A stretch of 64,000 bases of DNA, from IMG/VR virus record IMGVR_UViG_3300025139_000008; one strand, given 5' to 3'. A program made the position numbers and the translations under genes. This document shows positions 6,451-54,498 of the stretch, piece by piece; position 1 is the first letter of the stretch; each line of letters opens with the position of its first letter. Source of the DNA: an uncultured virus (IMG/VR IMGVR_UViG_3300025139_000008). Taxonomy: Duplodnaviria > Heunggongvirae > Uroviricota > Caudoviricetes. The notes beneath the pieces are model-generated. The model was not told the DNA's origin. It saw nothing but the letters and a program-made list of their open reading frames with translations, and ran no database searches.

Positions 6451-7029
6451 ATGTCCCGAAATGAAAGAAACCCCGACAAACCCCAAGGCTATTTGAACAA
6501 GAAGCAGGAACTCTTCTGCAAGTTCATGGCCGAAGGTTGTAACCAACTGGATGCCTACACCAACGCTGGTTACGAGCCTTCATCGGCGAATGCATCGACC
6601 ATGGCTAACAAGCCACTGATTAAAGCACGGATCGAAGAACTGAAACAACAGGCGGAACGCCGTGAGCTTGAGTTTCAAGTCATGCGACGTGAAGCCGCTG
6701 GTGCCCCGGAAAAACTGGTGGAGGTCGCTGAATGGACCATGCAACGCGTCATGGACATGATGGCCGAGAACGTCAAGCTCGCCCAGATCGCCGGTGAATA
6801 CCGGGCCGCCAACGAAACCTTCAAGATGATGGGCGAAGCCCTCAATATGTTCAACAAGGCAAAAGCAGATGCAGATCAAAGAAACTCGTCGGGAGCGAAA
6901 AACACGCTTGCTCTCATCGAGCAAGTCACTAACGTCTTTACAGAGGCGAGTGGAGGAGGCGATCCATCAGAACAGAACGCTCTCCGACCAAGACTGGCAC
7001 GCTCTGGTAACACTGACGCAAACGACTGA
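6451..7029 (+). CDS. terS: terminase small subunit
   Basis: LNKKQELFC...AY..AGY...A..P.IKARIEEL HTH pattern, directly upstream of terL. Confidence 0.85.
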   Translation: MSRNERNPDKPQGYLNKKQELFCKFMAEGCNQLDAYTNAGYEPSSANASTMANKPLIKARIEELKQQAERRELEFQVMRREAAGAPEKLVEVAEWTMQRVMDMMAENVKLAQIAGEYRAANETFKMMGEALNMFNKAKADADQRNSSGAKNTLALIEQVTNVFTEASGGGDPSEQNALRPRLARSGNTDAND

Positions 7030-8602
7030 TCTCGATCTACAGATAGAACTTCTTGAACAAGTCGTTGAGCAGGTCAATGATCTTCTCGAAGAGGTCTGGA
7101 TCGAACTTGCCCGAGAAAGCTACCATGACTTCTACGAGTTCATGGAGCGGGAAAATCAGTATGAAATGAGCCCGCACCAGAAGCTGATCGGCGACCTTCT
7201 CATGTCGTCGGCCAGCAAGGAAACCATGCGGTTCATGCTTTCACTACCACCGGGCCACTGTAAGTCAACCCATTCGTCGCACTACTTCCCAGCGTGGTGG
7301 TTCGGTAAGATCGGGACTAAGCAACGCTTCCTGCAAGCAGGTCACAGTCAGGACTTCGTTGCCAAAGAAATTGGCGCGAAGGTCCGGCAAATAATCCAGT
7401 CCGAAGACTACCAACGTATCTTCCCCGATGTCGTCATCAAGCACGACATGCGGGCGATGGACTATTGGGCTCTCACAAACGGACGCGGGAAATACGTGGG
7501 AAAAGGGGCCGGGCAGGGTATTTCCGGTTTCCGTGGCAACTACGGTATGGTCGATGACCCCTACAAGAGCCGGAAGGACGCAGAAAGTCCAACAATTCGT
7601 GACAGCGTTTTCAAATGGTATTCCGATGACTTTTCAACGCGTTTGCTCCCCGGTAGTCCTTTAGGGATTATTATGACGCGCTGGCACTCTGATGACCTTT
7701 GCGGAAGGATCACCGAACGCGAAGAAAAGGAAGCCCGCGAAGAAGCAGAAAAGTTGGAAGCATCACTATCGAAACAACTCGTTGAAAAACTTGAAGAACA
7801 ACAAGGAAACAACAAAAAATACCGCTTTGAGATCATTAACCTTCCAGCAATTTGTGAAAGTGAAGACGATCCTCTAGGTCGGGCGGTCGGCGAAGCACTT
7901 TGGCCCGAGTTATTTACGCTCGACGCGCTGGAAAATCTCAAAGCTGACATGACTCCTTCGTCATGGAACTCGCTCTACCAAGGGACCCCCATGGACGTGA
8001 GCGGGGGTGCTGTCGAGTCGGCATGGTTCCAGCGCTACGACCGGGCTCCCAGCCGAGGCGATGCCGAGAAGGGCTTGAAGAACGAAGTCCGGCGCTGCGT
8101 GGTATCGGTGGACGCCGCCAACACCGCGAAGGAGCGATCCGACTTCACGGTCATCACGGTCTGGTATGAGGACTTCAACAAGCGCCACTATCTGATCGAT
8201 GTGGTGCGGAAACAGATGGAGTTCACCGAAATGTCGGCCGAGATCGCCCGCGTCTGTAAGCGATACAACGCCGATGCGCTGCTGGTCGAAGCGAAGGGCA
8301 ACGGCTTGGCCTATTGCCAGTTGAAGAAGGACGGCGGCGCTCCGGCTCCGCTGATCGCGATCGAAGTCGGTATCTCGACCAAGGAGTTCCGCTTCGACGA
8401 AGTGACTCCCATGATCGAATCCGGCTCAGTCTTCCTTCCGAACCAAGCGACTTGGCTCGCCGACTACGAGAAGGAACTGGTTGCGTTCCCGAACGGCAAG
8501 CGAGACGACCAAGTGGACAGCACCTCGCAGTATCTCAAGTGGGCGCGGCAGAAGGGCCGGCGCGGGACGAAGAAGCTCGGAGGCACTGGAAATCGCCGAT
8601 AG
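6950..8602 (+). CDS. terL: terminase large subunit
   Basis: Walker A PPGHCKS, Walker B-like VDDP, coupling IMTRWH, nuclease SVDAA and FPNGKRDDQVD; start GTG 6950 after GAGG preferred (frame open from 6869). Confidence 0.95.
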   Translation: MEEAIHQNRTLSDQDWHALVTLTQTTDLDLQIELLEQVVEQVNDLLEEVWIELARESYHDFYEFMERENQYEMSPHQKLIGDLLMSSASKETMRFMLSLPPGHCKSTHSSHYFPAWWFGKIGTKQRFLQAGHSQDFVAKEIGAKVRQIIQSEDYQRIFPDVVIKHDMRAMDYWALTNGRGKYVGKGAGQGISGFRGNYGMVDDPYKSRKDAESPTIRDSVFKWYSDDFSTRLLPGSPLGIIMTRWHSDDLCGRITEREEKEAREEAEKLEASLSKQLVEKLEEQQGNNKKYRFEIINLPAICESEDDPLGRAVGEALWPELFTLDALENLKADMTPSSWNSLYQGTPMDVSGGAVESAWFQRYDRAPSRGDAEKGLKNEVRRCVVSVDAANTAKERSDFTVITVWYEDFNKRHYLIDVVRKQMEFTEMSAEIARVCKRYNADALLVEAKGNGLAYCQLKKDGGAPAPLIAIEVGISTKEFRFDEVTPMIESGSVFLPNQATWLADYEKELVAFPNGKRDDQVDSTSQYLKWARQKGRRGTKKLGGTGNRR

Positions 8603-8785: not shown

Positions 8786-9584
8786 GGACCCCATGCTCCA
8801 CGGCATCGGGGTCCCTTTTCACATTACGTCCGGGACCTTCACCCACACATCGCCGGCCGGGCCCCTGAGCCTCAGCACATAGGCCGGGGGTCCCTTTTTC
8901 CACGACCTCCGGGACCCTAAGCGTCAGGATATAGGCCGGGGTCTTGATTTACGATTTCTTCCACCGATCGACACCCATCTGGCTGCCAACATACGACCAA
9001 ACCGGCATACCCTCGCTCTCCAGCCGCTCCAGAGCCGGGTTAGCCTCGCTCTCCAGCCCCGTGAGAGCGAGGCTAACCCGGCTCCCATCACGCCCAACAA
9101 CCGACCAGCCAAGCCGGCGACCAGCCGACCCCACCGAGGGCTTGAACTTAACTTCCAAAAAGATTTCGCGTAGATATTGGAAGTTAAGGGTGGAAAAACT
9201 CGTGTAATAACAACACCATCGATCTAAAGTTCCAGATCGCCCGATAAGCAATTTAACAATGAGGCTGACTGCCGAGGTGGAGCCCCCTCAGAGACCCCGA
9301 CAGTATGGATGACGGTCATTTTAACCCACCCCTGCCTAAACTTGCGAAAGGAGTCTTTTGGAAGATAATTTTGGGGCCATTTTGGCCCTTAAATGCTTGT
9401 TTTTGCCGCATTTTTGTTAAAATGTCGGTGAAAAATGGCCGATTCAGTGAAAATGGCGGTGATTCCGGGCCGTTTTAAGCCCTCTCAGCGTCATTCTGGC
9501 TGATCCAGCGGTCACCGAGCCCGGTCAAGCCTGCTGGAAGCTCCAGCGGCTCCCAGCTTCGGCTCAGCCATGTTCGATCGACTT

Positions 9585-21756: not shown

Positions 21757-21918
21757 GGGGAGGGGCTTCGGCCCCTCTTTCTTTTTGCCCGGTGAAATTT
21801 GTTAACCTTAACGAATATGGTTAACAAATTGACGTTTGGGGTTAACTATCAAAGTGGAAAAAGTGCTTGACCGAATCGGTGACTCGTGCGAAAACGAATC
21901 ATCAATCGGAGACAGATC

Positions 21919-22050
21919 ATGCAAAACATCCGCAAGAATCCCATTGCCGCCTCGCTCGCCAGCGCTCACCTCGCCCCTCGCAAGGTTCGCGCTCGTAAAG
22001 GCAAGGGCTCTTTCCGCCGCAACCCCAAGCATCGGGGAGTGGCGGCATGA
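21919..22050 (+). CDS. ArfA-like (alternative ribosome rescue factor-like) peptide, 43 aa
   Basis: MQNIRKNPIAASLASAHLAPRKVRARKGKGSFRRNPKHRGVAA carries the N-x-I..L.....R.....KGKGS-aromatic-x-R..KH signature; GGAGA RBS; below the ORF-track cutoff. Confidence 0.7.
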   Translation: MQNIRKNPIAASLASAHLAPRKVRARKGKGSFRRNPKHRGVAA

Positions 22051-22229
22051 GCCGCGCTCGCAACACCCTCGACTCCCGCTATAGCGTGCGCCTCGAATGG
22101 TGCGGACGTGCGACGCAGCAATGGGTTGCCCGCTTCTGTGGTGATTGGCTCGGATGCGACTCGACCCGCTCGGGCGCTGAGGAAATCGCCCGTCTGTATG
22201 AGCGCGACCGCTGGAGCATGGCAGCATGA
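22047..22229 (+). CDS. hypothetical protein (EWCG...WVARFCGDW)
   Basis: ATGA coupling. Confidence 0.75.
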   Translation: MSRARNTLDSRYSVRLEWCGRATQQWVARFCGDWLGCDSTRSGAEEIARLYERDRWSMAA

Positions 22230-22570
22230 GCGACCGCATCCGCCCCGTGACTTTCGACTCGGCCCAGATCGAGCCCTTTGCTGCTCGCATCATCGGCATA
22301 GCCGCTTCGCAATTCTGTCGCCTCAAAGAGCGCGAGAAAGAGACCGGAGAGAAGTCGGACCCCTTCGACATGGAAGATGCTCTTATGCATCTCTGGTGGG
22401 CTCTCAAGGGGCTTGATCACATTGCAATAGCGTTACGCGGCGGCAGGGACTGCGACGACGTGTCAGGCGTTCATTTTTCCATGGTGATGAATGCGGAACA
22501 CAGCAGGATTCGCCGCCTCATCATGGAAGAACTTGGAGTCGATCCCGGATCGCATCCGCGCTGGAAATGA
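22226..22570 (+). CDS. hypothetical cassette protein
   Basis: ATGA coupling; terminator follows. Confidence 0.75.
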   Translation: MSDRIRPVTFDSAQIEPFAARIIGIAASQFCRLKEREKETGEKSDPFDMEDALMHLWWALKGLDHIAIALRGGRDCDDVSGVHFSMVMNAEHSRIRRLIMEELGVDPGSHPRWK

Positions 22571-22777
22571 GGGGCTTCGGCCCCTCTCTTTTTGCCCGGT
22601 AACCCCACGTTAAGGTTAACCGATCGGGCGAAGTTGTTAACCATCAAAGTGAAATTGAAGTGGAAAAAGTTCTTGCACGAATCAGCGAATCGCCCTAGAC
22701 CCGAATCACCGGGCGGCACCTACTGACTGGCAGAGCAGCAGCAAGGCTCGCCCGGTAACTCACACAGGAGACAGGCT

Positions 22778-25719: not shown

Positions 25720-25830
25720 GTATGCGTGCGTGTGCGCGTGCGTGCGTGTGCGCCTGTGCGTGCGCCTGTGCGGGCGCGTGCGCCTGCGGGTGTGCGCGCC
25801 TGCGTGTGTGTGTGCATGTGTGCGCGTGCC
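25720..25830. repeat. alternating purine-pyrimidine (GT/GC)n tract
   Basis: gtatgcgtgcgtgtgcgcgtgcgtgcgtgtgcg... for about 110 bp with few interruptions. Confidence 0.9.
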
Positions 25831-25848: not shown

Positions 25849-26207
25849 GTGGAAAAACAAACTCACAAACTAATTCATTTTGTTATTGATTTGGTAACGA
25901 ATCCCTGCGATAAAGGGACATCGAAAGCGAACGGAGACAAGACCATGTTCAAGATCATTGACACCGCAAACAACAGCGAATGCCTTGGTAGCTATGAAAC
26001 CCGCGCTGGGGCAGACTACGGGCTCGGCATGGTAGCTTGTGGACGTGGTAACGACTCGGGCTTGCGTATCGTCAACCAAATGACTCATTGCGTAGAAGTG
26101 CCCGCCACGTTCTAAGTAGTGGAAAAACAAACTAACAAAATAATTCATTTTGTTATTGATTTGGTAACGAATCCCTGCGATAAAGGGACATCGAAAGCGA
26201 ACGGAGA
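25849..26207 (+). repeat. two near-identical ~89-bp promoter/RBS units (second cassette promoter type)
   Basis: GTGGAAAAACAAACT.ACAAA.TAATTCATTTTGTTATTGATTTGGTAACGAATCCCTGCGATAAAGGGACATCGAAAGCGAACGGAGA at 25849 and 26119. Confidence 0.9.
25945..26115 (+). CDS. hypothetical cassette protein
   Basis: GGAGA RBS; MFKIIDT start. Confidence 0.7.
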   Translation: MFKIIDTANNSECLGSYETRAGADYGLGMVACGRGNDSGLRIVNQMTHCVEVPATF

Positions 26208-40186: not shown

Positions 40187-43100
40187 ATGGATACCCATGG
40201 CATGAAGTTTGTCGTTGACACGACTGGAGTCGCGAAGGGTTTTCGCGACTACAAGTCGGCTGTCGATGGCATCTTCGCTTCCCTGACCAAGTTCGAAGCC
40301 CACGTCGATAAGACGATGAAGGGGGTTGCTAAGGCTTCGGCTAACCCACAAGCACTCAACGCATTCAAGAAGGCCGTCAGCGCCTTTGCGAAGGTAGACA
40401 TCGACACGTCGGCAGCCCGCAAGCTGTCGGCGCTGTCGGCTGCCATGCAGGGCTTTAAGGCCCCCTCCAGCGCCCAGACAGCAAACACCAAGCGCTTCTT
40501 CAATGTTCTGGGTAACTCGCTCCCAGACCTGACTAACGCATACCGTTCGATCAAGATGCTGAACGACTTGAAGACCGCGCTGGCGGGCTTCAAGGCACCA
40601 CCGGCTGGGGCTTCCAAAAATCTCACGGCGTTCGCCAATGCAATGCGGACCGCCGCGCCGGCTTTCAATAGCCTCAAGAGCGTGTCTGGCACAGCGCGGG
40701 TCGCTAATGAACTGGCGCTGCTCGGCGCTGCATTCCAAAATCTCCGAGTCCCTACCGCTGGTCAGGTTACCAACCTTGGTAATTTTGCCCTTGCAATGCG
40801 CTCCTTAAACTTCTCCAACCTTCAAGGTTCGGGGAACTTTTATGCTGCGCTGGCCGCGATCGGAAACTTCCGGGCCCCAACAGCAGCACAGATTCGTAAC
40901 CTCCAGTCGTTCGTAACGGCTGTTGCCAACATGCGTGTTCCCCAGAACGCGGATGCGGTCGCAGCCGCACTGGCTCGGATCGCAGGGGCGGTCGGTCGGG
41001 CAAGTGACGCGATGCGAGGTCTTCGCGGCAATGTAGGCAGCCTCGGTAACAGCCTCGGTAACTTGGGAGGACAGGCACGCGGCGCTTCGATCCAGATGAT
41101 GGGTCTCCAGAACGCTTTCTCTGGCACGTTCCAAGTGGGCTCTGTTTTGCGTTCGCTTCTGGGATCGCTGACCATTGCTGAGCTTGGTCGCAACTTCTTT
41201 GAAGCGACCAACGCAGCTATCCAATTCAAGGCACAGATGGGCGTCCTGAACAAGGACCTTCAATTCGCCGACGCTCAGATGACCTATGTCCGAAACACAG
41301 CCAATGCTTTCGGAACGGACATGCTTGCGGCGGCCACCGGCTTCGCCAAGGTCAGCATCGCGGCTGATAAATCCAACATGACCGTCATGCAGACGCGTCA
41401 CATCTTCGAAGGTCTGTCCACCGCCATGACGGTTCTGGGCACGACCACTGCTGGGCAGGGCGATGTGTGGTTGGCTCTGCAACAGGTCATGAACAAGGGC
41501 TATCTGTCGGCCGAAGAACTCAACCAGCAGCTTAACGAAAAGCTGCCGGGTGCGATGGCTTATGCTACCGAGTATGCCAACAGCCTCGGACTGTCTCTGG
41601 AAAAGGGTTTGAAGACCAAGGCGCTGGATGCCGCTGGTGTGCTTGCCCATATTGCACAGCGGATGAAGGAAGACTTCGGTCCTTCTGTGGCTGCTGCTTT
41701 GATGCGCCCGGCCGCACAGATGAATATCCTGCGTAACAACATCGATCAGTTGTTCATCGCCATCGGCGAGAACGGCGGTAACGACGCGTTCGCAAACCTG
41801 CTCGCGAAGATCAACGAGCGGATGAAGCCCGAAGACATCGAACGCTATGCAGTAGCGATCGGTGAGGGCCTGAAAAACGCGGTCGATAGTCTGTCGGCGG
41901 CCTTCGATTGGTTGTATCAGAACTGGGATTCGATCAAGGGCCCGCTTTCGGCAACCCTGGAACTCCTCGGTAAGTGGATGATTGTATCCAGCGCCCTCCA
42001 GATTGGCCGCTTTATCGTTCAGCCGCTGATGGCTATCGGACCGGCATTAGGTGGTTTACGGACCGCTGGGGCCCTTCTGGGTGTGACCTTCGCAACAAGC
42101 GCCCGTGCTGCTGTCGGTGCCATGGCGGGCCTGACAGGCAGCGCTAGAGCCGCTGCTGTGTCGATGCTCCAGTTCCGTGCATCTCTGGCTGCTACGATCG
42201 TAGCTATGCGCGGTGCTACTGTGAGCGTCGCCGGTCTGCGTGCGGCTATGCTGGCATTGGCGACCACCGGTATCGCCGGGGCTGTCGCCGGCCTGCGTGG
42301 GCTGGTTGCCTTGCTTGGTGGTCCGCTCCTGCTTACACTGGCGGCTGTTGGTTACAGCATCTACCGGGTGGTGGATGCTTGGGACTCGCACAAAAGAACG
42401 CTCGAAGAGGCGAACGTCACGATCGACAAGAACAGAAAGTTGATCGATGAAACACGCACTTCTTTAGCATTCGGCAGCACGGCAACCGACACCGCGACGG
42501 GTGCGACCAACCTCTATGGTATCTCGATGGACACTGCACGCGGGTTCATGGAGCGATTCCGCCAGAAGGCCGATGAAGCAACCAACGGGTTGTTCTCGAT
42601 GGCATTACAGGCGCGTCAAACCCGCGTCGAGATGTTGAAGTTGGCGCAAGCCGACATCACCAAGAAGCTGTCCAGCCTGCAAACCAACTCCGTCCGGGAG
42701 CTTGGTCAGTTGGCTGATCAACAGTTCGCGAAGGGTAACTATTTCACCGGTGCTGGAGCCAAGCTTTACCAAGGTATGCAGGGTCTCCGCAACATCGGTG
42801 ACCGTGCGCGTGAAAAGGATGTCAACGAAGGGATTGACCGACTCAAAGCACAGCGGGACGAACTGGCTGCGCTGCAAAAAGAGGTAGAATCGGAATCTCT
42901 CGACACCGGTATGGACAGACTCCGAGCCCAAGGGTTCGGTGGTAAGCCGCCGCGTGCGTCCACGCCGACCGAAGCTGGTAGCGGTGGTGGTTCTTCGGGC
43001 GTCAACAAGGCAGCCCGCGAAGCTGAGCGTCTGGCTAACTCGGTAGACCAGATCATGGGAACCTTGATGGAGAACGACCCGATCGGGAAGCTCTATCAGG

Positions 43101-44959
43101 ACTTTGTTGAAACTCTCGGTGATCAGGCTAGAGTCCTGCTCAACGATAAGGGTTACGAACAGTTCGTTGCCAACGTCAAGGCGCAGAACAAGGACGGTGT
43201 GGTTTCGGTCGAGTCACTGATTTCGGTGATGAAGGCCAGTGGAACCACCTCGGCCGGTGCTTTGAAGCTGATCGAAGACAAGTATGGTAAGACCAGCGAC
43301 CAAATCGTAAACCTGCTCAAAGAACAGCAGGCGGCGTTGGAAGAAGCTTACACCGACGCGGCTATCAAGGAATTGGATAAGTCCTTCCGTTCGCTGTCGC
43401 GTGGTATTTCCATGGTTGGGGATAGCATCCCCGCTGTGGCTGAATTGGGTGCTAACCTTCAAACTATTGAAGGTCTGGCTCGCTTTGTCATGCCTGCCAA
43501 TGAGGGCTTTGTTAAGTTCCTCAGCGACGTTCGTTCAGGTGCGCTTTCAGCAGCGGAAGCGATGGATAAGCTGGAAGCCATCATGGCTGATCCAAACCAG
43601 CGTTCGGCAACCGCAAGCCAGTTTTTCGCTACTTCCAACACCAACCCGGCCGAAGTTGCGAAAGCAAATCGTGATCGCGTCGCGGCGAATGCAAACGCAC
43701 GCGCCGAAGCTGAGTTGGATATGCAGTTCGGTGAACGACTGCTCCAGCAGCGCAACAACGAAATCAAGCTCCTCCAGATGTCTTCGCAGGAGGCGGAAGC
43801 CTACACGACGGTAATGGAAGAAGTTAACCGGATGCGCGCTAAGAGCGGCCCGGTTTCTCAGGAGGTTATCAACAACCTCCTTGAGGAAGTTCGTGCGCAG
43901 CAGGCACTCGCTAACCAGATGCAGCGGAACAAGGAGTTCTTCGAGAACAACGGGGTTCGCAGCTACATCAACGACATCAAGAGCGTTGGTGAGTCGATCA
44001 ACGAGTTGGACAAGAACGTCCTCCAGTCGTTGGAAGATCAGTTGTTCAGCCTCGGCACGACTGGGAAGTTCAGCTTCCAAGCTATCTTTGACACGCTCCA
44101 ACAGGGCCTGATTCGTTTCGCTTCCCAGAACATCCTCAAGGAAGGGCTGGGCAAGCTGTTCGGCGGGGATCAATTGGAGGGCGGAACCCCGAGCCTTCTG
44201 GGCGGCCTCTTCAAGGCGATGGGCTTTGAACACGAAGCTGGCACTACCGACCCACTCGGAACTGCAAGACGCCCGATGCACGTCATCATCGATGGTGGCA
44301 CCGGTAACTTGATCAGAAAAACCGGTGAAGTCATCATGGAAACTGGTGGCACCCCTGAGGAAGCTGTTGGCAACGCTGTGAACAGCTTGATCAGCGGAAC
44401 CAATCAGGTCGGACAGATCATCCGTGACCAGTGGGGTAACGAAGTCAAGGGCATTGGTGGTATCCTCGGCCAGATCGCCGGGAGCTTGATGGGCGGAGGT
44501 GCTGGTGGTGGCGCTGGTGGCATCCTTGGAAGTCTGCTCAACATCGGCATGTCGGCACTTGGCGGCGGCGCGGGTCCTCTTGCTTCTCTGGCAGGTAGCG
44601 CGGCTCAGACGATCGCAGCAAATCCGGGCATCTTCAAGGAAGGTGGTTTTCCGGGATCGCCGGTGGCGCGGGCTTCGGTCCACCCGTCGGCATTCACCAA
44701 CGCCCCGCATTATGCGGAAGGCACGCCGAACACCAGCGGCGGTCACCCGGCTATTCTGCACGACAATGAAGCGGTGATCCCTCTCAGCCGTGGCCGCAAG
44801 GTTGCTGTTGAGATGAACGGGGGAAGCCGTGGGCAGACGATCAACAACAACTTCATGATCAACAGCCCAGATGCGAACTCGTTCCGTAAGAGCGAAACTC
44901 AGATCGCGACCAAGATGCACATGCAAGCCGGCCGCGCCTACCGCCGCAACCACGGCTAA
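40187..44959 (+). CDS. tape measure protein
   Basis: 1590 aa, Ala/Gly-rich; LQQVMNKG.LSAEEL.QQL.E tape-measure motif. Confidence 0.95.
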   Translation: MDTHGMKFVVDTTGVAKGFRDYKSAVDGIFASLTKFEAHVDKTMKGVAKASANPQALNAFKKAVSAFAKVDIDTSAARKLSALSAAMQGFKAPSSAQTANTKRFFNVLGNSLPDLTNAYRSIKMLNDLKTALAGFKAPPAGASKNLTAFANAMRTAAPAFNSLKSVSGTARVANELALLGAAFQNLRVPTAGQVTNLGNFALAMRSLNFSNLQGSGNFYAALAAIGNFRAPTAAQIRNLQSFVTAVANMRVPQNADAVAAALARIAGAVGRASDAMRGLRGNVGSLGNSLGNLGGQARGASIQMMGLQNAFSGTFQVGSVLRSLLGSLTIAELGRNFFEATNAAIQFKAQMGVLNKDLQFADAQMTYVRNTANAFGTDMLAAATGFAKVSIAADKSNMTVMQTRHIFEGLSTAMTVLGTTTAGQGDVWLALQQVMNKGYLSAEELNQQLNEKLPGAMAYATEYANSLGLSLEKGLKTKALDAAGVLAHIAQRMKEDFGPSVAAALMRPAAQMNILRNNIDQLFIAIGENGGNDAFANLLAKINERMKPEDIERYAVAIGEGLKNAVDSLSAAFDWLYQNWDSIKGPLSATLELLGKWMIVSSALQIGRFIVQPLMAIGPALGGLRTAGALLGVTFATSARAAVGAMAGLTGSARAAAVSMLQFRASLAATIVAMRGATVSVAGLRAAMLALATTGIAGAVAGLRGLVALLGGPLLLTLAAVGYSIYRVVDAWDSHKRTLEEANVTIDKNRKLIDETRTSLAFGSTATDTATGATNLYGISMDTARGFMERFRQKADEATNGLFSMALQARQTRVEMLKLAQADITKKLSSLQTNSVRELGQLADQQFAKGNYFTGAGAKLYQGMQGLRNIGDRAREKDVNEGIDRLKAQRDELAALQKEVESESLDTGMDRLRAQGFGGKPPRASTPTEAGSGGGSSGVNKAAREAERLANSVDQIMGTLMENDPIGKLYQDFVETLGDQARVLLNDKGYEQFVANVKAQNKDGVVSVESLISVMKASGTTSAGALKLIEDKYGKTSDQIVNLLKEQQAALEEAYTDAAIKELDKSFRSLSRGISMVGDSIPAVAELGANLQTIEGLARFVMPANEGFVKFLSDVRSGALSAAEAMDKLEAIMADPNQRSATASQFFATSNTNPAEVAKANRDRVAANANARAEAELDMQFGERLLQQRNNEIKLLQMSSQEAEAYTTVMEEVNRMRAKSGPVSQEVINNLLEEVRAQQALANQMQRNKEFFENNGVRSYINDIKSVGESINELDKNVLQSLEDQLFSLGTTGKFSFQAIFDTLQQGLIRFASQNILKEGLGKLFGGDQLEGGTPSLLGGLFKAMGFEHEAGTTDPLGTARRPMHVIIDGGTGNLIRKTGEVIMETGGTPEEAVGNAVNSLISGTNQVGQIIRDQWGNEVKGIGGILGQIAGSLMGGGAGGGAGGILGSLLNIGMSALGGGAGPLASLAGSAAQTIAANPGIFKEGGFPGSPVARASVHPSAFTNAPHYAEGTPNTSGGHPAILHDNEAVIPLSRGRKVAVEMNGGSRGQTINNNFMINSPDANSFRKSETQIATKMHMQAGRAYRRNHG

Positions 44960-46478: not shown

Positions 46479-46881
46479 CGATTTTATCGCAGCAGCCCGT
46501 TCCTACATGGGGGTAAAATGGCGACATCAGGGACGAAATCGATTGGGAGTAGATTGTGTCGGTCTGGTCCTTTGCAGTCTGGCTGATCTGGGAATCCCAG
46601 CACCGGACATGCAGGGATACCGGAGAACACCTGATCCGATCTTCGTCGAGCATATCCGAAACAATTCATTACCAGCCGAAAGCACAGCGCCCGGAACTCT
46701 CGGTATCTTCCGAGATGGAACCCAGCCGTGTCACGTTGGTATCTTCGCAACCATGCACGGTCAAACTTCGCTGATCCACGCTTATGCTGGAACCGGGATC
46801 GTCATGGAAGAAGTCTTCATCCACGACTGGCCGAACAAGCTGGTTGAGGTCCGTGCATTCAAAGGACTTGAATACATCTAA
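46465..46881 (+). CDS. NlpC/P60 tail-associated peptidase
   Basis: WRHQGR...GVDCVGL, HVGI and IHAY. Confidence 0.92.
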   Translation: MPNSDDFIAAARSYMGVKWRHQGRNRLGVDCVGLVLCSLADLGIPAPDMQGYRRTPDPIFVEHIRNNSLPAESTAPGTLGIFRDGTQPCHVGIFATMHGQTSLIHAYAGTGIVMEEVFIHDWPNKLVEVRAFKGLEYI

Positions 46882-49800
46882 TGGGACAACTCGCGACCAC
46901 CATTGCTGGCGGCGTCATCGGCTTTGCAATCGGCGGGCCCTTCGGGGCTCAGGTCGGGATGATGCTTGGCGGCATGATCGGTGCCACTTTGTTTGGTCCG
47001 ACGGTCCATGGCCCGCGCCTCAACGACCTCAAGGTCACAGCCTCAACATATGGGGTCGCGATACCTGAAATCTACGGGACCGTCCGGGTGGGTGGAAACC
47101 TCATCTGGACCAGCGGCATCCGCGAAACCAAGAAGTCTTCGCGCCCCGGTAAGGGCGGACCGAAGCAGACAACCTATTCCTACGATGCCACTTTCGCCAT
47201 GGGCTTGTGTAAAGGGGAAGTGGGAGAGATTTTGCGTATCTGGGCTGACAGCAAGATCATCTACGACAAAACCGGAGGGACGACCAGAACGCCGGCACCG
47301 AGCGGCGGTAGTGTCTTCCAGACCTTGTTCGTGGAAATCCTCAACGCAAAGAAAAAGAAGAAGCGGATCAACCTTCGTCTCTACCGTGGCGACGAAAACC
47401 AACTTCCCGATTCTCTCATCGAAGCAGACAAGGGCGTGGGCAACGTTTCGGCTCACCGTGGGTTGGCTTATGTCGTGTTCGAACGACTGGAGTTGGAGAA
47501 CTTCGGTAATCGCATTCCTCAGATGACCTTCGAGGTTACCAAGGCGAGAACGCGTGGGTTGTCTGCCCTTCCCGTGCGTGATCGCAGCGGCGTCGTCGAG
47601 GACACTGCAAACCGCGATTGGCTCCCAGACTTTGCGTCCGGGCGTTTGCTCAGCTTCGACAGAAGCGGGGGTGGCACCAAGCTCTACAACACAGCGGACA
47701 ACACCTTGATTGCAGAAGACGAGTCGATGGACTTCGATCTGAGCGACAAGTCCTACAGTCTGGTTGATGGTCAAAACGGATTGCTGGTTGCCAACTTCCC
47801 CAGCGGGGTAGGTTTCTCCTATTACAACACTGCGATTCTGACAAAGATCAAGGAATACAATTCCTCCACCGGAACTTCCAACATTTGGGACCCGGAGGAG
47901 CAGGATATAACACTGGCAACGAATGGCAAGATCGGACACGGCCGATTTGTGTCAGGAACGTCAGGCGGCCTGCACGTCGTCCATACCGACACGACCGGCA
48001 AGACTTTCTTGATGGACAGCGAAGGCCGTCTGCTCAACGAGGTCGATGCTCCGTTCCAGCCAGACGTATTCCTCGAAGGACGACGTGACGCGCCCAACTC
48101 GCAGATCATCGGTTGGCGGTTTGCCAACGATCGCCTCGAAATGTTCGAGGTCAAGATCGGATCATCCGCGAACTATACCACCATATCTGATGGCGCGACC
48201 ACGACGTGGGTTCCTCAAGAAGACTTTGAGTTGAAAACCATCAACCTCAAACCATACCCCGATGAGAAATTCCAGCCGCTGGTTCTGGTCTATGATCCAA
48301 CCGATGATCACTTCTTCTGTCTGGGTGTCGATCCTGACAAATACAATGACATGGGTTCGTTCGGCAACGGCGGCGGCGTCATCGTGTTCAAATACTCGAT
48401 GGCGACCGAGACCTACAAGTTTCTGGTTAGACACGCTGGCACGCCTGTCCCTCGTGGCCTGACGCAGAACATGCGCGCCTCTAGGGTCGCCGGTGGCACA
48501 TTCGGATGGGTAGGTAAACCGGTTGTTGGGGCTCCCACAGTCAATCAAGTGAGTCTGCAAACCGGCGGCCTTGAAAATCTCTTTGAGGCACAGGACGATT
48601 TTGGCTCCGGCTTGACCGGCGACGGGGACCAGTATTGGGATGATGAAACGGACAGCATCTTCGCCGACAGGATCGTCGGAGGGGAAACGAATAGCTACCG
48701 ACTGCGCGTGAGTGACAGCGTGTCACAGGTGACCGTTCCAGCTATTGTCGAGGACATCTGTCTCCGCACTGGTGTCTTGGCACCAGAAGACATTGACATC
48801 ACTGAACTGGATGCCTCGCCTCTGGTCGGTTATTCTCTCGACCGGATGACCACGGCTCGCGACGCCTTGAAGCAGATGGCTACAGCGTTTCTGTTTGACG
48901 GCTACGAAAGTGACTACAAGCTCAAGTTCCGCTCGCGGGGCGGGGATTCGGTTGTCAACATCCCGGAAGACTGGATGGTCCGGGAAGGCGAGGATGGTGT
49001 CATCAAAGAGACCATCACGCAAGAGCTTGAAATGCCGGTTCGGATCAGCGTCAACTATTACGACATTGCTCGCGATCACCAGCAGAACAGCCAGACCGCG
49101 AAGCGCAAGGTTGCCCCTTACCCGACCATGTGGACGGCCAAGGAAGACTTGATCGACCTGCCCATCACATGGGACGCGGACTCGGCCAAGCAGTGTGCAG
49201 ACAAGTTGCTCAAGATGGCGTGGGCAAATCGGATCGGTCATCAGTTCAGCTTGCCGTGGCGCTATCTGAAATATGATCCGACCGATGTCGTCACCATCAC
49301 GATGGAAAACCAGACGACTTACAATCTGCGTCTGACCGAAGCGAACATCGGGTCCAGCTTTTCGATCGAGGCGATGGCGGTTAGCGAAGTTGCGACCGCT
49401 TATGTCTCGACCGCGACCGGGGCCCAGTCGCCGGCTCCTATCCAGACCGTTGAGGGTGATGGGACGGCCTTCCCGATCATCATGAATACACCGCTGCTGC
49501 GTGATGTCGATTACGACACCACTGGCTCCTCTATCTGCTACTTTTCGGCCGGCACCAATGAAGTCACCTTCAACGGGGCGGCAGTGTATATCGATGACGG
49601 TAGCGACTATCAGTCCGTTGGTGTCATCGATAGCCAGACGACCACAGGATACGTCGTAGAGGCTCTTCCGGATACGAATAGCTACGAAGCCACCGACGAC
49701 ACCACGGTCCTGAGGGTGCGGCTGTCCGATCCAAGCATGGAGCTTGAGTCGGTCACTCAGGATGACATCCTGAATTTCGAAGCCAACTCGGCCTTGATCG

Positions 49801-50480
49801 GAAATGAAATCATCCAGTTTCGGGACGCAACACTGCTGCCGACCGGAGAGTGGGCGCTGACCGGCATCCTGCGTGCCCGTCGGGGCACCAACTACGCTGT
49901 GCTGGGCCACCAGCCGGGTGAGAACTTCCTGTTGGTCAACAGCCTCTCGACGGGAAAATTCTCTCGCCCGCCTGAGAGCTATGTGACAACTCGGTTGTTC
50001 AAGGCAGCCCCTGTTTCAGTGCCGTTGTCGGACGTGGTGCCTATCTCGGTGGACTTGATCCCGCGAGACCTCATGCCTTACACCCCTGAGGCGGTCAAGG
50101 TGACCGATGACGCCACTGATGTAGTGATCAGCGCCGAACGCCGCTCGCGTGTCACAGCGCCTCTCAGAGACGGTCTGGGCACCATTCACTACAAGGAAGG
50201 GGATATGCTCAGCGCCCGGATCGTTACCAAGGTCTGGTTCGGCAAGGGGTTGTCCGATGTGAACACCGTCGGTGATCCAGACCTGACCTTGACAAACTAT
50301 TTGTTCGACGCCGCCGGTCAAGACATCCCTGTGGAAGCAACCTTCCCTGTGGCTTCTCTGGGTGCCGAGGACATGATCCTGATCCAACTCGCAGAGATCG
50401 GTGAAGTGACAGGCACGCCCAAGTGGGTGCAAGCCATCCGAAATGGTCCAGCCGGGTGGGACCTCCTCGAATTATATTGA
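46881..50480 (+). CDS. tail tip / host-specificity protein (GTA gp15 / J-like), copy 1
   Basis: YG..IP..YGT.R..GN.IW, AHRGLAYVVFE.L.L..FGNRIP and GNEIIQF...LRARRGT. Confidence 0.88.
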   Translation: MGQLATTIAGGVIGFAIGGPFGAQVGMMLGGMIGATLFGPTVHGPRLNDLKVTASTYGVAIPEIYGTVRVGGNLIWTSGIRETKKSSRPGKGGPKQTTYSYDATFAMGLCKGEVGEILRIWADSKIIYDKTGGTTRTPAPSGGSVFQTLFVEILNAKKKKKRINLRLYRGDENQLPDSLIEADKGVGNVSAHRGLAYVVFERLELENFGNRIPQMTFEVTKARTRGLSALPVRDRSGVVEDTANRDWLPDFASGRLLSFDRSGGGTKLYNTADNTLIAEDESMDFDLSDKSYSLVDGQNGLLVANFPSGVGFSYYNTAILTKIKEYNSSTGTSNIWDPEEQDITLATNGKIGHGRFVSGTSGGLHVVHTDTTGKTFLMDSEGRLLNEVDAPFQPDVFLEGRRDAPNSQIIGWRFANDRLEMFEVKIGSSANYTTISDGATTTWVPQEDFELKTINLKPYPDEKFQPLVLVYDPTDDHFFCLGVDPDKYNDMGSFGNGGGVIVFKYSMATETYKFLVRHAGTPVPRGLTQNMRASRVAGGTFGWVGKPVVGAPTVNQVSLQTGGLENLFEAQDDFGSGLTGDGDQYWDDETDSIFADRIVGGETNSYRLRVSDSVSQVTVPAIVEDICLRTGVLAPEDIDITELDASPLVGYSLDRMTTARDALKQMATAFLFDGYESDYKLKFRSRGGDSVVNIPEDWMVREGEDGVIKETITQELEMPVRISVNYYDIARDHQQNSQTAKRKVAPYPTMWTAKEDLIDLPITWDADSAKQCADKLLKMAWANRIGHQFSLPWRYLKYDPTDVVTITMENQTTYNLRLTEANIGSSFSIEAMAVSEVATAYVSTATGAQSPAPIQTVEGDGTAFPIIMNTPLLRDVDYDTTGSSICYFSAGTNEVTFNGAAVYIDDGSDYQSVGVIDSQTTTGYVVEALPDTNSYEATDDTTVLRVRLSDPSMELESVTQDDILNFEANSALIGNEIIQFRDATLLPTGEWALTGILRARRGTNYAVLGHQPGENFLLVNSLSTGKFSRPPESYVTTRLFKAAPVSVPLSDVVPISVDLIPRDLMPYTPEAVKVTDDATDVVISAERRSRVTAPLRDGLGTIHYKEGDMLSARIVTKVWFGKGLSDVNTVGDPDLTLTNYLFDAAGQDIPVEATFPVASLGAEDMILIQLAEIGEVTGTPKWVQAIRNGPAGWDLLELY

Positions 50481-50949: not shown

Positions 50950-53900
50950 ATGGGTCAACTTGTTACCACCATCGCCGGCGGCGTCATCGGCTTCTTGATC
51001 GGCGGCCCGATGGGCGCGTCGATCGGTATGGCACTTGGTGGTATGATTGGTGCTACCTTGTTCGGTCCGACCATCAAGGGACCGCGCCTCAACGATCTCA
51101 AGGTTTCCTCCTCGACCTACGGGATTGCGATCCCTGAAATCTACGGAACCGTTCGGCTCAGCACGAACTTGATCTGGACAACCGGGATCAAGGAAACCAA
51201 GAAGACACGCCGCGCCGGTAAGGGTGGCCCGAAGATCGAAACCTACTCCTACGATGCTTCCTTTGCCCTAGGACTGTGTAAGGGCCCGATCCGGGAAGTT
51301 CTTCGTATCTGGGCTGACAGCAAGCTCATTTACGATGTCAGCAGCAATGGCACCCGTAACCCGCTCAACGCAGGTCAGTCAGGTATTCTCGCACCCATTC
51401 TTCTGTCCTTCCGAACCGGAAGCACAAAGAAGAAGCGGGTCAATATGCGTATCTACCTCGGTAACGAAGAGCAGCTTCCAGACTCCCTGATCGAAGCCGA
51501 TAAGGGTGTTGGGAACGTCTCGGCTCATCGCGGCTTGGCTTATGTCGTGTTTGAGCGACTCCAGCTTGAGGATTTCGGTAACCGGATTCCCCAGTTCACA
51601 ATGGAAGTCACTAAGGCTCCTGCCGAATCTTTTCCTTCTGTCGAAGTCAAAGAAGGACCGGCCGGCCCGGTAGAGCGGCCCGATGGACGATTCTGGTTTC
51701 CTGACTGGGAAAACGGCAAAGTCTATTCCAGCATCATCGGGGATGACACCACACAGGTGTTTGATCTCAATACCATGCAGCAAATGCAGAGTTGGTCGGG
51801 ATCGGATATGTGGTTGACTAAACGCTATGGCTTTGCGCCTTGGGCTGGTATTTTCTTCGAGGACGCCGGGTCTGGTAACTCGCGTCCATTAGCCATTTAT
51901 AGCCTCAGCACTGGCGCTCGTATCAATCTTGTAGGTGTTGGTTCCCGCTCTCTGTCTGGATTTTATGTCCAGAGTGGACCGGACCAAGGTGCTTTAGCTA
52001 TGGGTGCTAATTTTGGTAACCAAGCTACCGCAACCTTGGATGGGCGATACATCGTTCTGGCAGGGTGGACACGCGATAACTGGATCATCACACCGGGCGG
52101 GCAACCGGTGGGCTGGTATGAATCAGCTTGGTCTCCGCAACACTTGTTCCCAGCCCTTGGCTCTGTGTGGGGCTGGCGTAATGGAAACAACGGCCTCCAG
52201 ATCGCTGACTTCTTGAGCGGTGGGATTGGAGGGTTTACCTTAGCTCCGCCTGATAATAACGGAAATGTCTTTTGGAGACAAGGTGGTAGCCTTGCTTTCA
52301 ACACGACGTTGCGTCCGTTACCGGGTGAAACTTACATTGCATCGCTTTGTCTTTACGATCCATCTGACGGACATTTTTTCTCTGTTGGTCGCTCGAACGA
52401 TGGAACACGATCCATCGCTGTTGCATTCAAATATAATCCGCTAACGGGGTTATATAAATTCATCAATGCCGACCCGGAAATCATAGTCCCAAGTGGCCCT
52501 ATGCAATGGTCCCGCTTAAATGGTGGAACTTTTGGTTACATTGCTGATAGCCTTAACCGTAACTTTAAAGTAAACTTGCAGCAGATCAGCCTACAGGATG
52601 GTTCGATCGTAAAAGACGTTCCTTATGGTAGCACTTGGGGTGGCCCTATCTATATCAGCGGTCGGCAATACTGGGATGATGTTAGCGGTAGTATTATCAC
52701 TACAACCAGATACAATTTCCGTCGTATCTGGTTCAACGACAGTGCGAAAGCTGTCAGACTTTCTGATGTGGTCAGGGATATTGCTACGAAGTCCAACGTT
52801 CTGACTGTTGATGATGTTGACACCACCGGATTGTTCAACGAGGAGATCATTGGTTTTTCCATTGATCGGCAATCGTCAGCAGCCGATGCTCTAAAGCAGT
52901 TGGCTACTGGTTATATGTTCGACGCGTTCGAGAGTGACTACAAGCTCAAGTTCCGGACGCGAGGACGCGACTCCGAAGTTGTCATTCCACAAGATTGGCT
53001 TGCTCGGCCGGGCGACGAGATGATCAAGGAGAACCTTGTTCAGGAACTTGAAATGCCTCTCAAGGTCACGGTGAACTACTATGATACTTCGCGTGATCAC
53101 CAACAGGGATCGCAGTCGTCTCGCCGCAATTCCGGCCCATTTCCGACCATGTGGACGGCCAAGGAAGACATCATTGACTTGCCGCTGGTATGGACGCCGG
53201 ATATGGCTAAGCAATCGGCTGACAAGCTTCTCAAGATGGCGTGGGCAAACCGCGTCGGACTGCAATTCAGCTTGCCGTGGCGCTACCTGAAATATGAGCC
53301 TTCGGACGTGATCACGATCACCACCGATAAGGCTGTCTATTTCACACGCTTGACTGAGGTTACGATCGGGCAGGACTTCTCGATCGAAGCGTCCGGGGTG
53401 ACTGAGAAAGCCAGCGCCTATGTCTCGACCAAAGTAGGTAGCCGGGTCGAATCCCCTGAGCAAACAATTGAAGATGGTTACCCAGCCTATCCGATCGTGA
53501 TTAACACACCGTTATTGCGGGATGAAGATTACGACACAAGTGGTTCATCTGTATGTTTCGTTTCCGCTGGAACAAATGCCTTCACTTTCAGTGGAGCAGC
53601 AATCTATGTCTACGATGGTATCGAAGATCAGCGGATTGGGTTCATCGGAGCCGACACTACGCGTGGGGTGGTGATCAACGAACTCCCCTACACCACGGCT
53701 TACGAATCGACGGATGAAACTACTGTCTTGCGGGTAGTATTGAACAACCCCAACGATGAGCTTGAGTCTGTGACGCAACTAGACATGCTCAACTTCGACA
53801 TGAACGCGGCCTTGGTTGGTGAGGAAGTCATTCAGTTCCGGGACGCTGTTCAGCAGCCCAACGGTGAGTGGTGGCTGACCGGGCTCCGTCGGGCGCGACG

Positions 53901-54498
53901 CGGCACCAACTATGCGTTGCGTAGTCACAAGCCGAACGAACTCTTTCTGCTTCTGGAACCACAGGCAATTACCTCGTTTGTCCGGCCGCCGGAATCCTAC
54001 GTGACTACGACTGAGATCGTTGCTGTCACCGCTGGGCAGATTATTGCAGATGCAATCCCAGTCCGGGCAGACCTCCAGCCTCGCGATCTCATGCCTTACA
54101 CCCCGGAAGACATCAAGATCGACGACGATGGTTCTGACATCACCATCATGGTTCAACGTCGTTCGCGGATTATTGCTCCGTTGCAGGATGGGATTAGCAA
54201 CATCCACTTCAAGGAAGGTGCAAAGCAAACGTCCAAGATCGCCTGTCAGGTGTGGCCGGGTCGAGGCTTCGAGGTGATCGATACAAACCTCCCACCTACG
54301 CTGGTTGAGCATGTCCCGATCTTTGATTCCAACGGGCAAGACCTTCCGTTGGAAATCAGCTTCCCACTCTCGACACTGGGATCATCCACAAATTTTGTGG
54401 CCCGGATCACCGAACAAGGTGTGGTGGATGGCATCGCCAAGTGGATCGCTTTCGAGCGGGTAGGTGAGGGACGCTGGAACCAGACCGAATTTTATTGA
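50950..54498 (+). CDS. tail tip / host-specificity protein (GTA gp15 / J-like), copy 2
   Basis: Full-length paralogue of 46881..50480 with a divergent central region. Confidence 0.88.
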   Translation: MGQLVTTIAGGVIGFLIGGPMGASIGMALGGMIGATLFGPTIKGPRLNDLKVSSSTYGIAIPEIYGTVRLSTNLIWTTGIKETKKTRRAGKGGPKIETYSYDASFALGLCKGPIREVLRIWADSKLIYDVSSNGTRNPLNAGQSGILAPILLSFRTGSTKKKRVNMRIYLGNEEQLPDSLIEADKGVGNVSAHRGLAYVVFERLQLEDFGNRIPQFTMEVTKAPAESFPSVEVKEGPAGPVERPDGRFWFPDWENGKVYSSIIGDDTTQVFDLNTMQQMQSWSGSDMWLTKRYGFAPWAGIFFEDAGSGNSRPLAIYSLSTGARINLVGVGSRSLSGFYVQSGPDQGALAMGANFGNQATATLDGRYIVLAGWTRDNWIITPGGQPVGWYESAWSPQHLFPALGSVWGWRNGNNGLQIADFLSGGIGGFTLAPPDNNGNVFWRQGGSLAFNTTLRPLPGETYIASLCLYDPSDGHFFSVGRSNDGTRSIAVAFKYNPLTGLYKFINADPEIIVPSGPMQWSRLNGGTFGYIADSLNRNFKVNLQQISLQDGSIVKDVPYGSTWGGPIYISGRQYWDDVSGSIITTTRYNFRRIWFNDSAKAVRLSDVVRDIATKSNVLTVDDVDTTGLFNEEIIGFSIDRQSSAADALKQLATGYMFDAFESDYKLKFRTRGRDSEVVIPQDWLARPGDEMIKENLVQELEMPLKVTVNYYDTSRDHQQGSQSSRRNSGPFPTMWTAKEDIIDLPLVWTPDMAKQSADKLLKMAWANRVGLQFSLPWRYLKYEPSDVITITTDKAVYFTRLTEVTIGQDFSIEASGVTEKASAYVSTKVGSRVESPEQTIEDGYPAYPIVINTPLLRDEDYDTSGSSVCFVSAGTNAFTFSGAAIYVYDGIEDQRIGFIGADTTRGVVINELPYTTAYESTDETTVLRVVLNNPNDELESVTQLDMLNFDMNAALVGEEVIQFRDAVQQPNGEWWLTGLRRARRGTNYALRSHKPNELFLLLEPQAITSFVRPPESYVTTTEIVAVTAGQIIADAIPVRADLQPRDLMPYTPEDIKIDDDGSDITIMVQRRSRIIAPLQDGISNIHFKEGAKQTSKIACQVWPGRGFEVIDTNLPPTLVEHVPIFDSNGQDLPLEISFPLSTLGSSTNFVARITEQGVVDGIAKWIAFERVGEGRWNQTEFY

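Follow-up and report, generated by a model that had tools for sequence, protein, structure and literature searches.

An arfA-like gene in a bank of small cassettes

The window, i.e., the whole 64,000-nt stretch of DNA analysed here, carries a 43-codon arfA-like gene within a small-gene array that lies between the terminase and the PhoH/portal genes and forms a bank of cassettes of ~16 kb (Table 1). The major head protein encoded further downstream shares 96.8% identity with that of Erythrobacter phage XM05 and 90.6% with that of Erythrobacter phage vB_EliS-L02 (L02), followed by Sphingobium phage Lacusarx (80.5%), Citromicrobium phage RXM (71.0%) and Microcystis phage Mwe-JY26 (59.5%). The window therefore represents a Lacusarx-like siphophage, and the hosts of these relatives point to a probable host among the Sphingomonadales. 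No tRNA or tmRNA gene and no Rfam family was found within the 64,000 nt. Nineteen sequencing runs labelled as aquifer or hot-spring metagenomes contained half or more of the words sampled from the stretch, and no RNA run was among the runs containing it; from four runs labelled RNA-Seq, which we judged to be probably DNA, only short contigs of relatives were assembled. Two adjacent large tail proteins, encoded at 46881-50477 (1,199 aa) and 50950-54495 (1,182 aa), match the same PHROGs (phrog_4271 and phrog_1101) and are probably paralogues.

The cassettes of the array share a common layout. A 22-nt box, GGAAAAAGTGCTTGACCGAATC, has 25 copies between 10059 and 25450 (three or fewer mismatches; 0 expected by chance), each of them on the + strand, and the order within a unit is terminator, GTTAAC repeats, TTGACC box, weak -10-like element and (A)CGGAGACAGACCATG. 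Each box of the array is preceded by a GGGGCTTCGGCCCC-type terminator and GTTAAC-rich repeats, and behind it stands a conserved leader with GGAGACAGACCATG at its end. An E. coli-type sigma-70 scan called no promoter at the box sites; we infer that the box is a promoter from the repeated layout. The GTTAAC-rich repeats, which stand upstream of many cassettes, are possible regulator sites. Past the last of the 25 boxes, two direct repeats of 89 nt (25849-25937 and 26119-26207; 98% identical, 270 nt apart, family D12) begin with GTGGAAAAAC and then diverge from the common box, and possibly represent a second promoter type. Very stable structures were also observed at 9030-9086 and 25743-25799, one an almost perfect hairpin of ~22 pairs (-49.3 kcal/mol) and the other a GC-rich stretch of TGCGTGTGCGC-like repeat units (-38.6 kcal/mol).

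Table 1. Features of the arfA-like unit and flanking phage genes in the 64,000-nt window
Feature	Position	Strand	Remarks
Holliday-junction resolvase		+	PHROGs
Small and large terminase	6451-8599	+	PHROGs
Terminator-like hairpin with T-run	21757-21780	+	closes preceding cassette; 10 pairs, loop 4, CTTTTT; repeat family D8
GTTAAC-rich repeats	21801-21846	+	GTTAAC at 21801, 21820 and 21841; families D3, D4, D9
Promoter-like box	21856-21877	+	GGAAAAAGTGCTTGACCGAATC; TTGACC at 21867-21872
Weak -10-like element	21889-21895	+	CGAAAA/GAAAAC, downstream of the box
Shine-Dalgarno sequence	21908-21912	+	GGAGA, 6 nt upstream of the arfA-like ATG
arfA-like gene	21919-22050	+	43 codons and TGA (22048-22050)
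RNA hairpin	22014-22045	+	over codons 32-43; last pair 3 nt before the stop codon
Shine-Dalgarno sequence of next gene	22034-22039	+	GGGGAG, inside the 3' half of the RNA hairpin
Downstream gene	22047-22229	+	60 aa; ATGA overlap with the arfA stop
Third gene of the unit	22226-22570	+	114 aa; ATGA overlap
Terminator-like hairpin with T-run	22569-22586	+	closes the arfA unit
PhoH	27080	+	PHROGs
Portal	29713	+	PHROGs; followed by scaffold
Major head protein	32863	+	PHROGs; followed by HNH endonuclease and adaptors
Tape measure	40187-44956	+	PHROGs
Large tail proteins	up to 63625	+	PHROGs

The gene starts with ATG and its translation is MQNIRKNPIAASLASAHLAPRKVRARKGKGSFRRNPKHRGVAA (43 aa). The initial annotation had claimed an unlisted 43-aa frame here, first in its cassette and with a canonical ribosome-binding site, and had quoted NPIAASL strings from it. 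The frame is indeed present on the + strand at that position, the quoted strings occur in its translation, and the gene, with its GGAGA, comes first behind the terminator hairpin and the promoter-like box. An open-reading-frame track run at a default cut-off of 60 aa would miss a gene of this length. A GTG start at 21886 (54 aa) was rejected because it falls within the promoter-like box and because relatives keep the Shine-Dalgarno sequence and the ATG. The two genes that follow in the unit yielded no family in Pfam, NCBIfam or PHROGs, and for the 114-aa gene the Atlas was empty as well.

The frame is very short and, as a single sequence, it matches solved ArfA chains only weakly, as might be expected if it were a leader-region frame open by chance, with a motif that reflects only the composition of a basic peptide. 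Comparison with relatives, however, makes the probability of such an accident close to nil, and this explanation is already refuted as far as sequence can tell. Nine viral contigs encode the peptide (four the same as the window and five distinct), and the nearest virus record holds an identical copy of the gene. Between the window and the five distinct relatives, 59 of the 74 differences over codons 1-38 fall at the third codon position (7 and 8 at the first and second), and 52 codon changes are synonymous vs. 11 non-synonymous; the window and two of these relatives, L008 and L009, are 88-92% identical to each other. GGAGA and ATG stand at unchanged spacing in all six distinct sequences from viral-contig loci, while the downstream genes vary from locus to locus (L008, for instance, does not have the 60-aa gene), and the score against the Pfam ArfA profile (below) exceeds the curated cut-off. 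Seven close relatives in the protein database are all 43-44 aa long and, overall, relatives keep a length of 42-44 aa; that is, the short, stop-terminated form is conserved, which agrees with the length part of the earlier description of a constitutively short version. By these comparative measures, the frame is a protein-coding gene under purifying selection. The gene, its family, its layout and its conservation are established.

Membership in the ArfA family and parts retained

ArfA is a bacterial back-up for ribosome rescue that appears only once trans-translation fails. The single Pfam match of the phage peptide is ArfA (PF03889), at 30.8 bits (E 2e-7, profile positions 8-43 of 44) against a curated gathering cut-off of 25.5 bits, and all seven close relatives are also above this cut-off in precomputed Pfam results. 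The profile search that had been proposed as a check on the ArfA-like assignment thus upholds it. BLASTP aligned the peptide without gaps to the 72-aa E. coli ArfA, taken from the RefSeq chromosome (locus L019), with 14 of 35 positions identical (residues 4-38 on 11-45, E 2e-6), and hhalign matched an 8-row family alignment to the same protein with a probability of 93.2% (E 3e-7). A single-sequence search of solved structures returned E. coli ArfA chains only, in weak (E ~0.3), ungapped matches. When the family profile was searched against 1.84 billion representatives, 79 proteins were recovered at E<=1e-3, of which 78 match PF03889 at E<=0.01 and 62 are above its cut-off. Six of the 79 are canonical long ArfA forms (67-85 bits on PF03889) and, therefore, the search returns to textbook ArfA. 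Fifty of the 79 do not exceed 55 aa, although some of these gene calls may be cut by contig ends. For the phage peptide there was no match in NCBIfam or, at 1e-5, in PHROGs, and the Atlas gave no useful taxa. Twelve of the 79 representatives also match Pfam DUF7230 (PF23876), whose small proteins have no known function, at 17.0-26.4 bits, none reaching the cut-off of 27, and the window peptide has no match to DUF7230 even at E 10. Judging from its sequence, the phage peptide is a true member of PF03889.

The ungapped alignment sets phage residue n against E. coli residue n+7. In this register, the phage tail K27-G-K-G-S-F-R-R-N-P-K37-H38 aligns without gaps to E. coli K34-H45, so that the ArfA tail KGKGS[YF]-x-R-x-x-KH is present in the phage peptide and the two proteins share KGKGS[FY], the R and the KH; the last residue of the phage peptide, 43, falls on E. 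coli residue 50, and its stop on residue 51. The equivalents of E. coli residues 1-7 and the entire C-terminal hydrophobic extension are absent. Within the 8-row alignment of the close family, K27, G28, K29, G30, R34, K37 and H38 are invariant, and so are the N-terminal N-P-I-A stretch and A10 and A11; in the 47-row alignment of the wider family, N7, A10, K27, G28, G30 and R34 are conserved at 90% or more. In the aligned sequences of the wider family, the N-terminal stretch is thus as conserved as the tail.

What is known of E. coli ArfA allows these parts to be read in functional terms. According to the account of ArfA in PMC8012679, the protein is encoded as 72 aa, remains fully active without its last 17-18 residues (i.e., at 54-55 residues) and is inactive as a 40-residue form, with at most 46-48 residues modelled on the ribosome. 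The phage peptide, ending at the equivalent of residue 50, extends past the inactive length of 40 as well as past the modelled 46-48. In the same account, the basic C-terminus with its KH motif occupies the mRNA channel, Q27-E30 dock on domains II/IV of RF2, and the A18T variant recruits RF2 but does not activate it (PMC8012679). Phage A11 aligns with A18 and its neighbor A10 is also alanine, which leaves a small residue at the A18 equivalent; in the wider family, the nearly invariant alanine is A10, one residue off the ungapped match, and the exact register is uncertain. At the RF2-docking stretch, phage P20-R21-K22-V23 stands against E. coli Q-R-V-E, with identity at R21/R28 only. A complex prediction from the family alignment and Caulobacter RF2 (Swiss-Prot RF2_CAUVC), with its controls left unfolded, scored 0.10 vs. 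a mark of 0.32, a value that speaks neither for nor against docking. Taken in this alignment, the phage peptide keeps the whole ribosome-visible part of ArfA without the regulatory extension.

A hairpin over the last codons

In bacterial arfA, the message loses its stop codon, either by an RNase III cut in a hairpin or at a terminator, and the hydrophobic extension is dispensable. The phage gene departs from this non-stop feature in that TGA follows codon 43 and no extension is encoded, with the hairpin ending just before the stop codon. This hairpin consists of an outer stem of 7 bp (CCGCCGC/GUGGCGG) and an inner stem of 4 bp (CCCC/GGGG), with the codons of K37 and H38 in a 7-nt loop. Its predicted energy is -22.7 kcal/mol (z -2.3), and the 57-nt stretch around it has a z of -3.0. 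We assessed the fold against recodings in which the protein sequence was fixed and codons were resampled by the phage's own usage. Recodings folding as well made up 0.2% for the window, 2.0% for L008, 0.1% for L009, 0.6% for L012 and 0.2% for XM05, vs. 47% for L010, 33% for L011 and 13% for L02. That is, in five of eight distinct sequences the stability of the hairpin goes beyond what protein sequence and codon usage demand; with the closely related window, L008 and L009 counted as one, about three lineages have the hairpin and three lack it.

It is possible, although we consider it improbable, that the peptide is a rescue factor made non-constitutively, the hairpin being the place where processing or termination leaves the message without a stop codon, so that, like the product of bacterial arfA, the peptide would build up only once trans-translation is saturated. 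Consistent with such regulation, the hairpin outperforms synonymous recodings in the five sequences above (fractions of 0.001 to 0.020), including XM05, where no gene follows the arfA-like gene; it ranks in the top 0.84% of 5,981 57-nt windows between 9000 and 27000, an 18-kb stretch whose 18 comparably stable places are mostly intergenic terminators; and E. coli arfA itself has an in-frame hairpin. Several observations speak against it. The E. coli hairpin sits at about codons 51-66, ~6 codons after KH, whereas the phage hairpin covers the KH codons and, since these lie in its loop, a cut in the loop or in the 5' arm would cost the peptide the KH motif that it needs. No T-run follows the phage hairpin. 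It is missing in three of the eight sequences (L010, L011 and L02), and the five carriers are not independent, given the kinship of three of them noted above. Further, the presence of the next gene's Shine-Dalgarno sequence in the hairpin, together with the two ATGA overlaps, fits plain translational coupling. Finally, across a wider set of phage arfA-like genes no excess of hairpins at gene ends was evident, with z<=-2 in 11 of 61 ends vs. 15 of 61 control stretches, the latter probably hitting intergenic terminators. The phage hairpin may serve in processing, in coupling or as a stabiliser, and may regulate the gene; with such a structure at the gene's end, expression may be other than simply constitutive.

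Phage relatives, likely hosts and proposed role

A tblastn search of 50,697 phage records returned seven records, which represent six phages because Cr30 is filed twice, and all six peptides exceed the PF03889 cut-off. The peptides are those of XM05 (36.9 bits, 42 aa, product annotated as hypothetical), Roseobacter phage CRP-212 (33.3 bits, 41 aa, locus L016 at 1492-1617), L02 (33.0 bits, 43 aa, locus L014 at 1498-1629, no annotation at the site), RXM (29.6 bits, 60 aa, g10 annotated as ArfA), Caulobacter phage Cr30 (27.2 bits, 50 aa, locus L015 at 1450-1602) and Mwe-JY26 (27.1 bits, 52 aa, product annotated as hypothetical). The CRP-212 frame is unannotated and lies within the annotated long gene gp38 in another frame; the Cr30 frame, also unannotated, overlaps an annotated gene at that gene's end, and its product terminates in RKGK without KH. 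Five of the six phages infect Alphaproteobacteria and one a cyanobacterium. A six-frame search of the five named relatives of the phage found PF03889 above cut-off in four, with none in Lacusarx.

Viral contigs hold many more such loci. A degenerate DNA pattern for KGKGS[YF]xRxxKH matched at least 118 viral-contig stretches, compared to ~1-2 expected by chance by our own estimate. Eighty loci of these matches gave 71 distinct peptides, of which 61 have ten or fewer residues after KH and 60 are 70 aa or shorter; 67 of the 71 match PF03889 at E<=0.001 and 40 are above its cut-off, counts that are partly circular because the loci were chosen by the tail motif. The same tail was also found joined to unrelated N-termini, namely 'SPEELQEYLxFKRRG' in 16 and 'KARVNxEGxMGSASREHRVKKGKGS' in eight of the 71 distinct peptides, in viral contigs of which many are 120-196 kb long; here the Pfam match covers the tail only. 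These loci include L021, L023, L025, L027, L029, L030, L034, L045, L049, L058, L066, L073, L076 and L082, and their products may be other kinds of ribosome-docking peptides.

To our knowledge, ArfA has been reported only from Gammaproteobacteria, some Betaproteobacteria and the B. subtilis group. The phage gene falls outside this range, its nearest cultured phages infecting Erythrobacter, Sphingobium and Citromicrobium. In the survey of 15,259 genomes summarized in Table 1 of PMC11633108, arfA was found in 699 of 2,704 Gammaproteobacteria and 37 of 1,000 Betaproteobacteria, and in 0 of 2,376 Alphaproteobacteria and 0 of 162 cyanobacteria; this survey may miss short divergent genes because it searched DNA with nhmmer, using profiles derived from annotated genes. 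As described in the same paper, Caulobacter crescentus is without ArfA and needs ArfB on loss of trans-translation (PMC11633108). Our own scan of 185,579 species genomes with two close-family peptide patterns, a test of near relatives only, found no true relative. A weak locus in a Planctomycetota MAG was rejected as an ArfA, being without the KGKGS motif. Since the survey finds no arfA in the class of the likely hosts, their RF2 has no known history with ArfA.

A phage ArfA is already in print as an annotation. RXM g10 is named ArfA in passing (section 3.4.2 of PMC8953757), and the description of pelagiphage HTVC027P gives the same name in passing to gp30, whose transcripts are reported to be high 3 h and 12-15 h post infection (PMC12753301). 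The former comes from the same wider phage lineage as our peptide and is 41.5% identical to it over the tblastn match, but it differs in having a 22-residue, partly hydrophobic tail past the basic motif and RKGR in place of KH; the latter is likened to our peptide by its annotation only, as known from that description. In the literature searched, which did not include subscription journals, we found no functional test of any phage ArfA and no remark on the short stop-terminated form. BrfA of Bacillus subtilis and ArfT of Francisella tularensis are, as described in PMC8012679, likewise small and basic and bring a release factor to non-stop ribosomes, BrfA sharing the KH motif and ArfT being only ~40 aa long, but that review regards them as having evolved independently, with very low sequence similarity, and we set them apart on the basis of this description. 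Compared to E. coli ArfA (YhdL), which is RF2-dependent, the phage peptide belongs to the same Pfam family but is 43 rather than 72 aa long and is phage-borne, in a group whose cultured hosts are Alphaproteobacteria.

We favor, with moderate confidence, the reading that the gene encodes a minimal, phage-borne rescue factor of the ArfA family that acts on stalled host ribosomes in an RF2-dependent manner. That is, the peptide probably frees host ribosomes stuck on broken messages, as its sequence suggests. By homology, we infer ribosome binding, RF2 recruitment and peptide release, as well as the timing and the benefit to the phage. Following transcription from the repeated, host-type-looking promoter-like cassette, the basic tail (K27-H38) would enter the mRNA entry channel left vacant when a host ribosome stalls at the 3' end of a truncated message; P20-V23, the counterpart of E. 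coli Q27-E30 in the alignment, would dock as a beta-strand on host RF2; and N7-P-I-A-A11 would help RF2 to open and hydrolyse the peptidyl-tRNA. The released ribosome would return to the pool for phage translation, and the gain would be more free ribosomes while messages are degraded during infection. Because its own stop codon follows the core and no hydrophobic extension is present, the peptide would be made independently of a failure of trans-translation. Against the favored reading stand the weak single-sequence similarity to the solved E. coli ArfA chains and the empty NCBIfam and PHROGs searches, together with the missing equivalents of residues 1-7, the near-invariant alanine that is one off A18, the hairpin at the gene's end and the likely hosts' RF2, which has no known history with ArfA. 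In addition, Thermus RF2 combined with E. coli ArfA was used to observe a closed, not yet active state (PMC8012679) and, therefore, recruitment need not mean activation.

The main rival, which we consider unlikely, is that the peptide blocks rather than rescues: it would fill the empty mRNA channel and either compete with tmRNA-SmpB (or ArfB), for instance so that phage products are spared tagging for degradation, or hold RF2 inactive. The channel-binding tail is the best conserved part of the peptide (K27, G28, G30 and R34 invariant or nearly so), and its presence on unrelated viral N-termini is consistent with a portable ribosome-docking module. The sites of ArfA and SmpB overlap in the mRNA channel, and an SmpB-tail peptide inhibits trans-translation, according to PMC8012679; moreover, as far as Table 1 of PMC11633108 goes, the likely hosts have no known ArfA-adapted RF2. 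However, N-P-I-A, which in E. coli is RF2-activating rather than ribosome-binding, matches the tail in conservation (N7 and A10 in 90% or more of 47 sequences, N-P-I-A invariant in the close family), and a mere blocker would not need this conserved N-terminal stretch, which disfavors blocking.

Returning to the rescue factor that we favor, its use as a counter-defence tool, i.e., freeing ribosomes stranded by the RNases of abortive-infection or toxin systems, without awaiting a failure of trans-translation, and so sustaining phage protein synthesis in Alphaproteobacteria without RF2-dependent rescue of their own, is a purpose that we regard as doubtful. What the locus offers is the working core of ArfA without its regulatory extension, behind its own promoter-like box and in a phage, while the class of its likely hosts is reported to have no ArfA, its rescue depending on tmRNA and ArfB. 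Many viral contigs have comparable short genes, as do cultured phages infecting Erythrobacter, Citromicrobium, Caulobacter, a Rhodobacteraceae strain and Microcystis. Should the peptide prove active, such phages would routinely bring their own ribosome-rescue route; this would bear on how phages maintain translation while messages are destroyed, and on whether a peptide of this kind can activate RF2 from bacteria that have no ArfA. With hosts in culture for XM05, L02 and Cr30, the question is open to direct test.

Two minor observations concern the wider set of peptides. In three viral contigs (L041, L054 and L093), the tail motif lies inside long frames of more than 220 aa that run off the end of the fetched stretch, one of which also contains DUF5824. 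Many short family members carry [KR]-x-[AG]-[WYF]-A (AWA, AYA or AFA) at the extreme C-terminus, among them P0003, P0004, P0006, P0008, P0009, P0014, P0019, P0041, L014 and L056, whereas the window peptide ends in VAA. The AWA codons of L012 are base-paired with those for P-K, and AWA could be either a protein motif or a by-product of the RNA stem.
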